Positions 58,388 through 64,000 of a stretch of 64,000 nucleotides of DNA are shown piece by piece (the stretch's first letter is position 1; each line of letters begins with the position of its first letter). The notes under the pieces are model-generated. The model was not told the origin of the DNA. It worked only from the letters and a program-made list of their open reading frames with translations, and made no database searches. This stretch comes from Planctomycetota bacterium. Its GTDB lineage: Bacteria; Planctomycetota; JAJSAM01; JAJVHW01. Made by a program: the position numbers and the translations under genes. The stretch spans positions 608,001-672,000 of the forward strand of contig CBDFJG010000004.1 in NCBI GenBank assembly GCA_965248445.1, given 5' to 3'.

Positions 58388-59188
58388 ATGAAGAAGACAC
58401 TGACGATCACGATTGCGGCCGTCCTCGCGACGGCGACGACACTCGGCGCGCTGACCCTGACCGGGCGGCTGCGCGCACAGGACGCGGCGAACGCGGAGGC
58501 GCGACGGGTCGACCGCGACGTCGCGCGCGCCGTTCGCGACGTCGAGGTGATGCGGCGCATCCTCGCGAAAGAGGCACTCGGCGCGACCTCGCGGACGGAC
58601 CCGATGGCAACCGTCGCCTGGCACGCGCGCTACGCGCTCGACCGCGCGACGCAGTTCGGCGGCAGCGGCAGCAGCGAAGCGTTCTTCGTGGAGGGACAGG
58701 GCGCGATCTTCATCCTCCGCACGTCGGACCCCGTGACGCCTCCCACGGGCGACCCCACCGCCACACCCGAAGAGAAACCGACGTTGTGGGACAGCACGCT
58801 GGCCGACGTCGAAGGTCACCCGCGCCGCTACCAGAAGGCCGACCAGAACGAACAGTTCGACCGTGAAAAAGTGCGCTCGCTCGAGGATCGCATCCTGACG
58901 CAGTTCGCGCGCTTCGGCGCACGGATGTCCGGGCTGCGCGCGCAGGACTCGATCACCGTAGTGGTCGTGGGCCGCGGCGGCGGGCGGAGCGCCGTCGCGT
59001 ACCTCAACGCGTTCTACGGGCCCGGAGACGAGTCCGAGCCGGACGAGTCGCCCGCGACCGTCTACCTGTCCGGGACCGGCCGTAGCGTCCGTACGATCCG
59101 AGTCGGCATGGGCGACATCCAATCCGTCGCCAACTCGGGCGGTGGCGCCGAGGCACTCCGCGCCCGGGCGACGATCCAGGCCTACTGA
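58388..59188 (+). CDS. Secreted hypothetical protein, third gene of the ECF operon
   Basis: GGAGGAG SD, signal peptide MKKTLTITIAAVLA, AFFVEGQGAIF. Confidence 0.65.
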   Translation: MKKTLTITIAAVLATATTLGALTLTGRLRAQDAANAEARRVDRDVARAVRDVEVMRRILAKEALGATSRTDPMATVAWHARYALDRATQFGGSGSSEAFFVEGQGAIFILRTSDPVTPPTGDPTATPEEKPTLWDSTLADVEGHPRRYQKADQNEQFDREKVRSLEDRILTQFARFGARMSGLRAQDSITVVVVGRGGGRSAVAYLNAFYGPGDESEPDESPATVYLSGTGRSVRTIRVGMGDIQSVANSGGGAEALRARATIQAY

Positions 59189-59784
59189 GGCGGCAGCCGC
59201 TCGAACGCGAGCAGGTGGCGTGCGCGCACGAACGCCACGCCACCGTCGCCGGCGGCGAGGTCCTCGGGTGCGGCGGCGGGCGTGTCGAACTGTTTCTCGC
59301 TGCCGTCCTCGAACGCGAGATGCACGCGTGGCGGCCGGTTCGTCTTCACGACGGACGGTTCGGTTGCGATCACCGTCGCCACGTGGCGCTCGACTGGGTG
59401 GCGCATCGTGTCGAGCAGTCGAAGGAGGCCGAACGCGGTCGCTCCCCCGCCTACGACCAGGAGCACCCAGTCGGCTCCGCTGCTCTTCCCGATCGCGTGC
59501 ACCGCCAGGAGAACGCCGACGGTTCCAACGAGAGCGCATCCGACGAGCACGAGGTTCGGCACCAGCTGCGGCCAGGTACGCGGGGTGCGCGTCAGGGCTT
59601 GCTGCAGGGCCGGATGCCCGCTCAGCATGACCAACTGCTCGGCGCGCTCGTCGTAGCGCGCGTGCGGAGCGGGCACCGCGCCGGCGAGTGGCGCGCCGCA
59701 CTCGCCGCAGAACGTGGCGTCCAGCCTCGCGACCGGTGCCTTGCACCGGCTGCACCGCTCAACCTGTACTTCGTTGCCCGCCAT
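59182..59784 (-). CDS. Zinc-ribbon, two-TM, DUF2500-like protein
   Basis: CSRC..CGEC, two TMs, AFEDGSE...GDGGVAFVR; same layout as 55022..55660. Confidence 0.6.
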   Translation of the reverse strand: MAGNEVQVERCSRCKAPVARLDATFCGECGAPLAGAVPAPHARYDERAEQLVMLSGHPALQQALTRTPRTWPQLVPNLVLVGCALVGTVGVLLAVHAIGKSSGADWVLLVVGGGATAFGLLRLLDTMRHPVERHVATVIATEPSVVKTNRPPRVHLAFEDGSEKQFDTPAAAPEDLAAGDGGVAFVRARHLLAFERLPPQ

Positions 59785-59852
59785 CGTCCTCACTCCGAAC
59801 CGCGGCCGGAGGACCGGGTTCGCACGGAGGGCAGGCTATCAGTGCCTCTCCG

Positions 59853-60751
59853 TTAGTGCCTGTGCTCGAAGCTGTACACGAACAGCAGTTCGTGATGACC
59901 CTGCGCGAAGCGGAGACGGCCACTGAAGTCGAGATCATCGTGACCAGAGCCACCGTCGAGCTCCACTTCGTCGTCGAAGTCGCTGTTGCGCAGGGTGACC
60001 TCGTCGTCGCCGCGGCCACCGTCGATCTCGACGTCGTCGTCGAAACCGCAGCCCTCCACGAGTATGTGATCGTCGTCGCGGCCGCCCTTGACGCCCACGT
60101 CCTCATCGAAGTCGGTCTCGGTGAGCAGTACCTCGTCGCTGCCCCGGCCGCCGACCACGCGGACCCTCGCGAAGCGCGTGAACGCGGAGAAGTGGATGAT
60201 GATGCGATCGTCGCCCTCGCCGCCGTGCAGTTTCACGCGGCCGAGCACGCGCACGTCGCGCAGTTGCACGTCGTCCCGTCCGTCCTGCGCCAGGATGCGA
60301 ACCGAACGACGGAACACGCAGTGGCCGGCCGTGATGATGCGATCGCGGCCGTCGCCGCCGTAGGCCGACATGCGGCGCCTGACAACGATGTCCTCCATGC
60401 GGAGCGTGTCGTGTCCGTCGTCCAAGCGCGCGCGCAGGTCGCGCACGTTCACGCCGATCACGTCGAAGTAGTCACTCCCGTCGCCTCCCTCGAGCCGCAG
60501 GGACCGCACGCCGCTCGCGATGACGGCGCCCGGCGCCCCATTGACGAGGGTCGTGCCGAGACCCAGGACCGTGATCTCGTCGGCGCCCGGGCCGGGGGTC
60601 ACCTCCACGTCGTTCGCGGCGGCGTCGCCGATCACGAGCGCGAGACCGTTCGGATCGACCGAGACAGACACGTCTCCGTCGGCCAGCGCCGGTGCCGCGA
60701 GCGCCAGGGTCAGCACTGCCGTCACCGCAGAGTCAGTTGGATGCCGCGCAT
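59853..60751 (-). CDS. Secreted Gly/Asp-repeat (GGxGDD) beta-solenoid protein, frameshift in the signal peptide
   Basis: AAGGAGGT SD and ATG 60751 (MRGIQLTL) are one base out of frame with AVTAVLTLALAAPALA; about 8 GGxGxD repeats. Confidence 0.65.
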
Positions 60752-60924
60752 TGCGCACCTCCTTGAGATCGGTCCCCGCAAGGACCGGACCGGTCTGACC
60801 CGCCACTCGGGAGGCTAACCTCCCCGCGGCGGACGTCATTCCGTGACCCCTGGTGTGTCCACGGTGTCTCTCCAGGGGGAATGCGCCCGAACCCCCGCCG
60901 GTTGATCGGCGCAGGAGGCCGTAC

Positions 60925-62055
60925 GTGAATTGCACCGTTGTTCGTCCCGCGCTGTTCGCGGCCTTGCTGACGGTCGCGGCCGGCTTCCCCTCCGCGGCAG
61001 GCGGCCAGGAGAAACCGGAGCTGCCTCCCATCTCTGAGGACTCCGGCTTCGCGTGGCTAGACGGGAACGACGACGTACCGGCCGTCGTGGCGCGTGACGA
61101 CGTGAAGAAGGGGATCGCCCGCTTCAAGGGGCACCCACGCGATGTGATCCCGCCGATCGACGAGCCCGTGTTCTATCCCTCCAACGACGCGGCACAGGCG
61201 CATCTCGGTCTGCGCGACGACGACCGGCTGCTCACCATCGAGATCGACGGCGACGCACGGGCCTACGCGACACGCATCCTGGACCGGCACGAGGTCGTGA
61301 ACGACACCGTCGCCGGCAAGCACCTCGCGATCATCTGGTGACCCCTCTGCCTGTCCGGGAGCGCGGTCTCCCGGACGCTCGGAGCCGTGAGTTCCAAAGA
61401 GTCGGGGCGGCCGGCGCAGGCTGAGATCACCGTGACAATCGGTGTCAGCGGCTACCTGATCAACAGCGACGTGTTGCTCTGGGACCGGGAGACGCAGACG
61501 CTTTGGTCGCAGATCGACGCCCGGGGCATCGCCGGACCGCGCGCGGGGTACGAGCTCACGCATCTGCCGATCGCCGACACGACGTGGCAGGCGTGGAAGA
61601 CGTCACATCCCGAGGGCCGGGTGCTGCGGGGCCCAATGCCGCCGAAACGCTACGCCGGCGGCTACCGGGGCTACCACGACTCGAACGGCGTCTTGTTCCC
61701 GCTCGCGCACGAGTCCGACCGCCTCCCGAAGAAGTCGGTGGTGACGGGTCTTCGCGTAGGCGGCGACTCCGCGTGCTGGTCACACGTCGGGCTGCGTAAA
61801 CGTTCAGCGGCGCGCGAGGAGACCGCCCGCGAGACTCCGCTTCACCTGACGGAGACGATCGGCGAGACCACGGTGCGGCTGACCTACGACCCCGTGGGTG
61901 ACAGCCTGACGGCCCACACCAAGGGGGAGCGTGACGAGGACGTCGCCGTCCCAACGCTCCGCATGTACTGGTTCGCCTGGTTCGCGTTCCATCCGCGCAC
62001 GCTGGTCGACGGCAAAGCGGCAACGCCGCCGCCCGACGGCGACGCGGGCGACTAG
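60925..62055 (+). CDS. DUF3179-family selenoprotein (W-U-P-L-C), secreted
   Basis: DVIPPIDEP, ARAY..RILDRHEVVND, in-frame TGA 61339-61341, then PLC, GVSGYLINS, DRETQTLWSQ and YWFAWFAFHP in one frame. Confidence 0.9.
61353..61376 (+). promoter_or_regulatory. Putative bacterial SECIS hairpin
   Basis: GTCCGGGAG-cgcggt-CTCCCGGAC, a perfect 9-bp stem starting 11 nt after the UGA. Confidence 0.78.
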
Positions 62056-62687
62056 TCGAGCCGGCGTCCGACGACCCAATCCTCGTGCTGGTTCCAGCCG
62101 ATGTATGCGCTGCCGTCCGCCGCGAGCCAGCAGTCGTCCACCCACGGATCGCCCGGTGCGCCCTCCCGCGGCCACGTGAACACGAGCCCGAGCCCGCCCG
62201 GCTCCCACATCGCGCCACGATGCTCCGCGTCGATCTCGCCGTCGGCACGCAGGTAGATCTCCCCCACGACGTTCCCGTTGACCGCGTGCTCCCAACGGCC
62301 GACGACCGCCGATGGATGCGGCCGCTCCCGCCGGATCTTCACGAACAGCCACGTGTCCGGCTTGTCCGGGTGAGGCCGCACCGGCCAGTACGCGTGGGAC
62401 ACGTAGTTCTCGCGCAATCGCAACATCATGGCGAGCTGGGCCGTCGGATCGTCGTACAGGACGAACACAAAAGGCGGCCGCTGGTCGTGCTGCCCGAAGG
62501 CGCCCCAGCCCCAGGTGCCGCGTAGCGGACGCGAATCCGGGGATTCTCGCGCGACCGGTCCGGCGTTGAGCACCTGATCCGGCGACCAGCGCAACTCCAG
62601 CCACGTCGGCGGGTCGGGGGTCGACAGGGCGAGCGCGCCGACGACGGCGAGCACGACGGCGGTGAGGATCAGAAGCCAGCGGGTCAC
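62052..62687 (-). CDS. Hypothetical secreted or membrane-anchored Trp-rich protein
   Basis: N-terminal hydrophobic helix, TAGGCT 6 nt before GTG. Confidence 0.55.
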   Translation of the reverse strand: MTRWLLILTAVVLAVVGALALSTPDPPTWLELRWSPDQVLNAGPVARESPDSRPLRGTWGWGAFGQHDQRPPFVFVLYDDPTAQLAMMLRLRENYVSHAYWPVRPHPDKPDTWLFVKIRRERPHPSAVVGRWEHAVNGNVVGEIYLRADGEIDAEHRGAMWEPGGLGLVFTWPREGAPGDPWVDDCWLAADGSAYIGWNQHEDWVVGRRLD

Positions 62688-62925
62688 GCGCCCAGCCTAC
62701 GCGCGATCGAGAGAGGCACCGGATGTAACCAATCGCCCTCCCCATACGCCCTAGGGGTGGGCGGTGGGGGGCGGGTGGATGGACGGCGCGGGTGGCCGGT
62801 CGCGGGCGGGCGGTGTTGCAGGCGCGGGAGCGTCGCTCCGAGTCGCTCCTCAGCATCGGGGTTCGCGGTGCCGCGGGGGTCCGCGCATACTGACGCCGGC
62901 GACCACCCTCTCTGGAGTCCCTGTC

Positions 62926-63621
62926 ATGCACCGTCTTGCACTCACCGTCATCGCCTTCGCCGGTCTGCTTTGCGCAGCACCGCTGCTCGCCGAGGAGAAG
63001 GCGACTCACGTCACCGAACCGGAATCCAAGATCAAGCTGCCGATCGAGCTGTCCGTGCTCGAGGGCACCGCGACGCACACGCTGACCGGCGTGGCGATTC
63101 GCGAGAAGACGATCTTCAAGGTCGACGTCTACGCGCTCGGCCATTACGTCGAGTCGGCCGCGGCAAAGAAGGACCTCGCCGCGTGGAAGGGCAAGACGGC
63201 CAAGCAACTTGCGGGCGACAAGGACTTCACCAAGAAGGTCCTCGCCCCCGGGTTCGCGCGCACGCTGCGCTTGCACCTGGCACGCGACGTGGATGCCGAT
63301 GACTTCAACGACGCGTTCGAGGACTCGCTCCTGCCGCGCGTCAAGAAGCTCATCAAGAAGGGCATCAAGGGCAGCGAGAAGGACGTCGAGACGCTCAAGG
63401 GCTACTTCACACTCGACGAACTGGCAGAAGGCACCAAGCTGGACTTCACGTGGACCAAGGACGGGAAGTTCACGTCCGTCATGAACGACAAGAAGCTCGG
63501 TGTCATGACGAGTCCCGCCCTCTGTGAAGCGATGTGGGACGTCTACTTCGGCTCCGACGCAATCCAGGACGAGTTCCCTACGAAACTCGTCGAGCGCTTC
63601 CCGGGCATCATCGGCAAGTAA
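62926..63621 (+). CDS. Chalcone-isomerase-like fold protein, secreted
   Basis: LTGVAIREKTIFKVDVYALGHY, LCEAMWDVYFG motifs. Confidence 0.82.
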   Translation: MHRLALTVIAFAGLLCAAPLLAEEKATHVTEPESKIKLPIELSVLEGTATHTLTGVAIREKTIFKVDVYALGHYVESAAAKKDLAAWKGKTAKQLAGDKDFTKKVLAPGFARTLRLHLARDVDADDFNDAFEDSLLPRVKKLIKKGIKGSEKDVETLKGYFTLDELAEGTKLDFTWTKDGKFTSVMNDKKLGVMTSPALCEAMWDVYFGSDAIQDEFPTKLVERFPGIIGK

Positions 63622-63638
63622 CCCGCCAGGAGACTCAC

Positions 63639-64000
63639 ATGCAACGCTGGCCCGCAGTTCTCGTCACCGCGTCTCTCATCGTCGGAGCGGCACTGCTTGT
63701 CCACACTGCTCTGGCCTTCGCCGAGCAGGGCCAGGGTCCCGTCGAGGGCGATAACGTCCGCATCGAGGACATGCGCCTCGGCGAGTACTGGTACGGCGCT
63801 GAGATCTCGCAGGAGGATCTCGTCGGCAAGGTGGTGCTCGTCGAAATGTGGGGCAGTTGAGTGGGCTGTCGGGCCATCACGCCCGAACTGGTCAGTCTGG
63901 CCAGCCGCCTCGAAGGAAAGCCGTTCCATCTGGTCGCGTCGTTCTGCCAGAAGGGCACGCGCGAAGACACCACGGCCTACATCAAGGGCAAGGGCCTCGC
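63639..64000 (+). CDS. TlpA/ResA thioredoxin-like selenoprotein (U-V-G-C), partial at the window edge
   Basis: Signal peptide, DLVGKVVLVEMWGS, TGA 63858-63860, then VGCRAITPELVSLASRLEGKPFHLVAS, open to the window end. Confidence 0.85.

Follow-up and report, generated by a model that had tools for sequence, protein, structure and literature searches.

The window analysed here is a 64,000-nucleotide stretch of a planctomycete genome, near the right-hand end of which lies a gene for a DUF3179 (PF11376) protein whose reading frame is interrupted by a single TGA. The gene and the features in and around it are as follows, in window coordinates:

60925..62055, + strand: DUF3179 (PF11376) gene, 376 codons, GTG start, TAG stop, selenocysteine (Sec) predicted at codon 139
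60913..60918, + strand: AGGAGG, resembling a ribosome-binding site, 6 nt ahead of the GTG (from sequence)
60925..61002, + strand: predicted cleavable signal peptide, approximately residues 1-26 (from hydropathy, cleavage site placed by eye)
61210..61632, + strand: repeat 1, modelled with a Rieske-like fold, lacks CxH/CxxH ligands, bears U-P-L-C
61288..61293, + strand: His122-Glu123 codons (from alignment conservation)
61339..61341, + strand: in-frame TGA, predicted selenocysteine 139
61348..61350, + strand: Cys142 codon, second residue of the UxxC motif
61353..61376, + strand: bacterial SECIS-type hairpin with a 9-bp stem, G being the second base of the loop (61362-61367; from folding and covariation)
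61705..62007, + strand: repeat 2, a copy of repeat 1 in shortened form, lacking the Cys/Sec motif (from hhalign)
59853-about 60752, - strand: ORF with an N-terminal hydrophobic stretch, no Pfam/NCBIfam match
62052-62687, - strand: ORF with an N-terminal hydrophobic stretch, no Pfam/NCBIfam match
62926-63621, + strand: chalcone-isomerase-like gene with an exported product, between the two selenoprotein genes here and also in the orthologous locus
63639..64000, + strand: TlpA-like gene, running past the window end to G000:C4:672778 (L172), in-frame TGA at 63858-63860 (W-G-S-U-V-G-C), weak NCBIfam match

Two open reading frames, 60853..61341 and 61387..62055, share one frame with only the TGA at 61339-61341 between them, and the original prediction that they constitute a single interrupted gene is borne out by the read-through protein. 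This protein matches PF11376 with 215.7 bits and covers the full profile (positions 1-292; gathering cut-off 27), as against 60.2 and 130.3 bits for the two halves taken separately, while a scan of the same protein against NCBIfam returned no family. We place the start at 60925, where a dicodon coding score trained on the genome itself turns positive just behind the AGGAGG at 60913-60918, and from there on the score stays positive, including across the TGA gap. Gene callers do split the gene, as had been anticipated, and the 222-aa downstream piece stands alone in the protein database (P0002). Mean hydropathy peaks at 2.4 over residues 9-19 and relatives have similar N-termini; from this hydrophobic N-terminus the protein is likely to be exported.

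The TGA falls in the sequence W-U-P-L-C, at the first Cys of the CPLC motif where it had been predicted to lie, and the aligned column is Cys in 71 of 71 homologues (the alignment holds 71 of the 77 database matches, or 72 rows with the window protein). The motif ends in Cys in 68 of the 72 rows, in Thr in three and in Ala in one; His122 is present in all 72 and Glu123 in 71. In 31 loci drawn from this genome and related ones (L045 and L017, apparently the same gene, being counted once) the column holds TGA in 15, Cys in seven and another residue in eight, the repeat being absent from one. The original prediction depended on homologues having Cys or Sec at this column, and that is how the aligned homologues and, among the 31 loci, the 15 with TGA and the seven with Cys read. 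The 15 loci with the identical TGA come from 11 genomes. The closest relative found, in a Planctomycetota assembly, has 52% identity, and in a heuristic scan of the genome the window TGA ranks first of the 182 TGAs that have coding signal both before and after them.

The genome (5.4 Mb, 92% complete, 0.17% contamination) is equipped to decode such a codon. The genes selA, selB and selD each score over cut-off and tRNA-Sec (selC) scores 68.3 bits against a gathering cut-off of 47, so that all four of the genes on which the original prediction relied are present; selD has an in-frame TGA of its own. As TGA is otherwise the main stop codon (1724 of 2730 long ORFs), recoding rather than a changed code is indicated. 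Although selA was found in 25 of 25 genomes with DUF3179 and in 23 of 35 without it, 16 of the 25 belong to one order and kin are not independent, and we therefore take the co-occurrence as consistency only.

Downstream of the TGA there is a perfect 9-bp stem (61353-61361 with 61368-61376) with a G-containing loop, beginning 11 nt after the TGA as the original prediction had described it; a U-G pair could extend the stem by one. The loop, CGCGGU, lies 20 nt after the TGA. With its 6-nt loop, 9-10 bp stem, G at loop position 2, 20-nt spacing and energy of -16.5 kcal/mol the element conforms to the bacterial SECIS consensus as given in the legend to Fig. 2A of PMC13188914 (loop 3-9 nt, stem 4-16 bp, G at loop position 1-2, spacing 16-37 nt, energy <= -7.5). 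Compared with 2000 synonymous resamplings the 9-bp stem is exceptional (P=0.003), and a 9-bp Watson-Crick stem is present in the equivalent window of 0.19% of 20,000 random genomic TGAs; a dinucleotide-shuffle test of the hairpin energy gives a modest result (z -1.0 to -2.0). An Rfam scan of 59000-64000 returned three matches, all far below gathering and none to a SECIS family.

The hairpin also follows the TGA from locus to locus. Of the 15 TGA loci 14 have a stem of at least 7 bp (G-U allowed), as do 16 of 79 distant Cys loci but none of the seven related ones. A 7-pair helix across the 15 TGA loci has 87.6% of its cells paired with 14 two-sided changes, and none of 500 shuffles scored as high, slid controls giving 35-57%; these covariation figures are inflated by the relatedness of the loci and by the choice of register. 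In the window hairpin itself the pairing is shifted by one base relative to most relatives, and the usual G-G/G-U is absent from the loop. The proposed match to the minimal SECIS of Escherichia coli fdhF stands only in part. A stem starting 11 nt after the UGA is common to both, but the fdhF element has a bulged U in its 6-bp upper stem and, after 18 nt, a loop that begins G-G-U, whereas the window element has an unbulged 9-bp stem and a loop after 20 nt with neither the bulge nor that loop start.

Taken together, the shared reading frame, the conserved Cys at this column, a complete Sec machinery and a hairpin tied to the TGA support the reading of this gene as a selenoprotein. Codon 139, the TGA, almost certainly specifies selenocysteine, and we predict with very high confidence that SelB binds the hairpin and inserts Sec. 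Were the TGA instead a true stop, brought about by nonsense mutation or assembly error or simply separating two genes, it would be the commonest stop of this genome put to its ordinary use, as its 1724 occurrences at the ends of long ORFs allow. However, such a stop would have to recur at the same column in 15 loci from 11 genomes, with a hairpin that tracks it and a coding score that continues across it, and it would leave a downstream piece having neither signal peptide nor motif. An assembly error is also at odds with the contigs of four sequencing runs, which agree letter for letter, although these runs come from one sample, possibly the source, and are not independent support. We regard a true stop as very improbable. 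A genome-wide reassignment of TGA to Trp or Gly is more improbable still: TGA-reassigned codes exist in other bacteria, but here TGA terminates 63% of long ORFs, no tRNA other than tRNA-Sec is called with a TCA anticodon, and the aligned column is Cys, neither Trp nor Gly.

DUF3179 (PF11376, UxxC/T) already figures among the predicted selenoprotein families in the tables of two reviews (PMC9312934, PMC13188914), so that the Sec forms to which the original prediction alluded have indeed been published, as predictions. The DUF3179 table rows in these two papers give no fold, partner or function, the available text of PMC9230427 has a DUF3179 member in a localisation table only, and no fold or function for the family was found in the literature searched, a search that had most subscription journals outside its scope. 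NCBI names members 'DUF3179 domain-containing (seleno)protein'. The window gene is one more member of this catalogued family, having in common with the listed selenoproteins a full PF11376 match, one Sec in a UxxC motif, and an in-frame TGA with a downstream hairpin. Its second repeat is shortened and a short insertion follows its motif, differences that leave its membership unbroken.

A second DUF3179 gene in the same genome (G000:C3:1277080-1278126; L161/L015) has UPLC, a 7-bp hairpin and a lipoprotein-type N-terminus, and belongs to a different branch from the window gene. In trees, one of them restricted to 30 of the available rows with long branches excluded, the window gene and its single orthologue are placed with Cys forms and outside the main Sec branch of the phylum. 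As joining the two with that branch is not rejected (AU p=0.18), we do not claim an independent Cys-to-Sec origin. A plasmid search returned 27 records, mostly haloarchaeal, and no functional lead.

The neighbourhood contains what may be a partner. The TlpA-like gene is separated from the DUF3179 gene by an opposite-strand ORF as well as by the chalcone-isomerase-like gene, and at the orthologous locus (L045) the same gene order is found and the TlpA-like TGA is kept. The hairpin of the TlpA-like gene is weaker (6 bp by folding, with no G in loop positions 1-2). We consider its product a candidate exported selenoprotein and a candidate electron donor for DUF3179. A promoter and terminator scan of 60600-64000 returned none. 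By eye, the ORF at 59853-about 60752 has Gly/Asp-rich repeats resembling calcium-binding repeats.

The DUF3179 protein is internally duplicated (hhalign 99.7%, E 1e-25; reversed controls 0.2%), and its models have a pLDDT of 82.9 for the whole protein and 90.3 for the repeat-1 domain. When the repeat-1 model is used for structural searching, ranks 1-43 are all Rieske-fold and the first other fold appears at Z 4.1, the matches including 3gce_A (Z 8.6, rmsd 2.7, 94 aligned), NirD 3c0d_A (Z 8.4) and 2qpz_A (Z 8.1); with the whole protein the top Z is 7.0. Over 93-97 residues repeat 1 superposes on Rieske ferredoxins (3gce, 2qpz, 3dqy) and on NirD (3c0d, 4aiv, 2jo6) with Z 8.1-8.6 and rmsd 2.7-3.5. 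In Foldseek neither the whole nor the domain model reached a match at E<=0.001; repeat 1 against Rieske chains gave probabilities of 0.97-0.99 with E 0.035-0.09. Profile comparison by hhalign with Rieske profiles (30 domains) is weak, at 11.5% for the whole protein, 31% for repeat 2 and 0.2% for repeat 1 (reversed controls <=0.5%), and a Pfam scan of the read-through protein has no match to PF00355 (Rieske). A sequence search of the PDB gave 0 matches for the protein and one chance match (E 0.78) for the profile, and an ESM Atlas search with a natural Cys homologue as query, DUF3179 clusters excluded, gave no usable match.

Because a CxH or CxxH motif is found in 0 of 70 domain rows, DUF3179 is not a Rieske iron-sulfur protein, and we predict from the models that repeat 1 adopts a Rieske-like fold without an iron-sulfur cluster; to our knowledge NirD is likewise without one. 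In a weak profile alignment DUF3179 has D-x-x-T/G-S at the position of the Rieske CPxHG, and it differs further from Rieske proteins in having two repeats and in being likely exported. Its U/CxxC motif would lie in a hairpin away from the Rieske cluster tip. A thioredoxin-fold UxxC oxidoreductase was also considered and rejected: the motif forms a turn linking two strands, in a model that is mostly beta, rather than standing at the start of a helix, and neither Pfam nor NCBIfam finds a thioredoxin family in the read-through protein. Judged from the secondary-structure strings of the models, Sec139 probably ends a strand at the hairpin turn, with His122 across from it.

A role as a cell-envelope redox enzyme is likely, and with a probability of roughly 55% we propose that the protein is an exported selenol oxidoreductase re-reduced through DsbD/TlpA. 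In this model Sec139 would be the nucleophile, aided by the invariant His122-Glu123 on the neighbouring strand, and would attack an oxidised substrate, which might be a peroxide, a disulfide or a sulfoxide. Cys142 would resolve the intermediate as a selenenylsulfide, a TlpA-type thioredoxin fed by DsbD/CcdA would re-reduce Sec139-Cys142, and repeat 2 may act as a non-catalytic scaffold or binding surface. In single-nucleophile thiol enzymes the first motif position is kept and the second varies; since the DUF3179 motif has Cys or Sec in first place and tolerates Thr, Ala, Ser or Leu in second, a redox role is suggested.

Periplasmic thiol reductases draw electrons from DsbD/CcdA via TlpA/ResA-type thioredoxins, and DUF3179 resembles them in its predicted export, its redox-type UxxC, its fusions to thioredoxin-type and CcdA domains and its TlpA-like neighbour, although it does not have the thioredoxin fold. 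Fusions among 120 of the 141 long homologues are to PF13715-type domains (82), thioredoxin/redoxin (17), VTT (2) and CcdA/DsbD (1), and WCxxC is intact in 13 of the 17 thioredoxin-type fusions, the other four not being assessable by script. At 10 of the 79 distant loci a gene for a redoxin or flavoprotein disulfide reductase lies in the flanking DNA, which extends to 4 kb at most, and the genome has a DsbD-like gene (L173) that itself contains a Sec candidate. No substrate is indicated, as most loci have no common neighbour and the commonest fusion partner, PF13715, is non-redox; the largest neighbour clusters are antisense shadows of the DUF3179 gene. The commonest long form (P0079-P0185) joins DUF3179 to PF13715/PF13620 (carboxypeptidase-regulatory-like), and the few rows of it that carry a name come mostly from Bacteroidota.

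Metal binding is the main alternative to this oxidoreductase. Here Sec would still be inserted, and U139, C142, H122 and E123 would bind a soft metal such as copper, the protein serving as an envelope metal chaperone or sink and its thioredoxin partners merely keeping the ligands reduced. The placing of C-P-L-C at a beta-hairpin turn (strands taken from the models) resembles a metal knuckle, and His and Glu are nearly invariant beside it. Six loci of one subgroup depart from U/C-x-x-C, four having His at the first position and the others reading NFLT and CPIS; five of them adjoin heme o synthase or cytochrome oxidase genes (ctaB, cox3, subunit IV), a setting that fits metal binding better and weighs against the redox reading, and the first-position His variants keep H-E. 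Metal-binding selenoproteins are moreover catalogued in PMC13188914, and the genome has an HMA-type candidate (L181). However, the His variants form a separate branch from the window gene, the second Cys is often replaced by non-ligating residues, even in Sec forms (UPVA, UIVA, UPLL), and exchange of Cys for Sec is described in PMC13188914 as mostly marking catalytic redox Cys. We judge metal binding unlikely for the window protein. A dedicated part in arsenic (arsenosugar) or selenium metalloid handling appears decidedly improbable: ArsS (TIGR04167, over cut-off), TIGR04282/TIGR04283 glycosyltransferases and an ArsM-like protein are encoded beside Cys homologues at six of 79 distant loci, but none of these genes is seen at the other 73 (flanks up to 4 kb, some shorter), the genome (92% complete) has no ArsS over cut-off (best 43 bits against 300), and the window neighbours of the DUF3179 gene are unrelated.

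The subgroup loci L019, L020, L021, L022 and L024 (HPLC, HPLS, NFLT, CPIS) encode apparently membrane-anchored DUF3179 proteins and have genes for heme o synthase and for cytochrome oxidase subunits III/IV as neighbours; the DUF3179 proteins are possible oxidase assembly or copper-handling factors. At L058, L068, L076, L078, L079 and L106 Cys-form DUF3179 genes lie within arsenosugar-type clusters, which contain ArsS, TIGR04282/TIGR04283, an ArsM-like protein, a VTT protein, a flavoprotein disulfide reductase and an ECF sigma factor with its anti-sigma.

Returning to the selenol oxidoreductase, we extend it to a broader and more tentative proposal, which we hold with somewhat less confidence than the redox assignment itself: that DUF3179 may be a tandem Rieske fold which has lost its cluster and acquired, elsewhere on the fold, a selenol/thiol centre and its His-Glu relay, making up a class of envelope oxidoreductases that this genome would use within a set of at least 26 predicted, mostly exported selenoproteins. 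If true, the Rieske fold has been reused for thiol chemistry. The Rieske scaffold is not among the selenoprotein folds in the available portions of PMC9312934 and PMC13188914. To the catalogued family the present analysis adds the two repeats, a Rieske-like model without ligands, the thioredoxin-type fusions and the downstream gene for a candidate TlpA-like selenoprotein. The lead it thereby offers for a widespread family consists of a cluster-less Rieske-like scaffold together with candidates for the Sec/Cys-His-Glu site and for the electron donor.

The figure of at least 26 derives from the heuristic scan and is a lower bound. When 40 TGA candidates were read through, 22 had the TGA inside a Pfam family stretch, three of the 22 scoring below the Pfam cut-off, and the families were thioredoxin-like, CMD/AhpD, Rdx, deiodinase, DUF1223, DUF3179 and HMA. 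An NCBIfam rescan of 12 candidates adds an ArsC-like protein (over cut-off) and the weak TlpA-like match, for a total of at least 26 family-supported candidates including the window gene and SelD. Export signals are seen by eye in about two thirds of them, and several of the remaining 16 candidates are plainly adjacent genes. The window gene illustrates how gene callers cut such selenoprotein genes in two. Six putative selenoproteins are given for one planctomycete in the accessible text of PMC4807772. According to the available parts of PMC13188914, selenoprotein-rich bacteria, with records of 57 and 63, are mostly anaerobic, and aerobic bacteria rarely keep selenoproteins; a large exported set in a genome that also encodes heme-copper oxidase subunit I sits awkwardly with the rarity stated there.

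The candidates of this genome (L155-L181) are mostly exported thioredoxin-like proteins, together with three CMD/AhpD CxxU proteins and deiodinase-like, Rdx, DUF1223 and HMA-type proteins. Five others (L171, L174, L178, L182 and L185) have coding signal and signal-peptide-like N-termini with little or no family support, and this set includes the motifs YUNPC, QUPFC, FCU and AUPNC and an LRR-like protein. At L184 (G000:C4:1561052, - strand) an in-frame TGA falls in a D-V-E-V-A-* repeat; coding signal is present before and after it but there is no hairpin, and here the TGA is possibly a nonsense mutation rather than a Sec codon.
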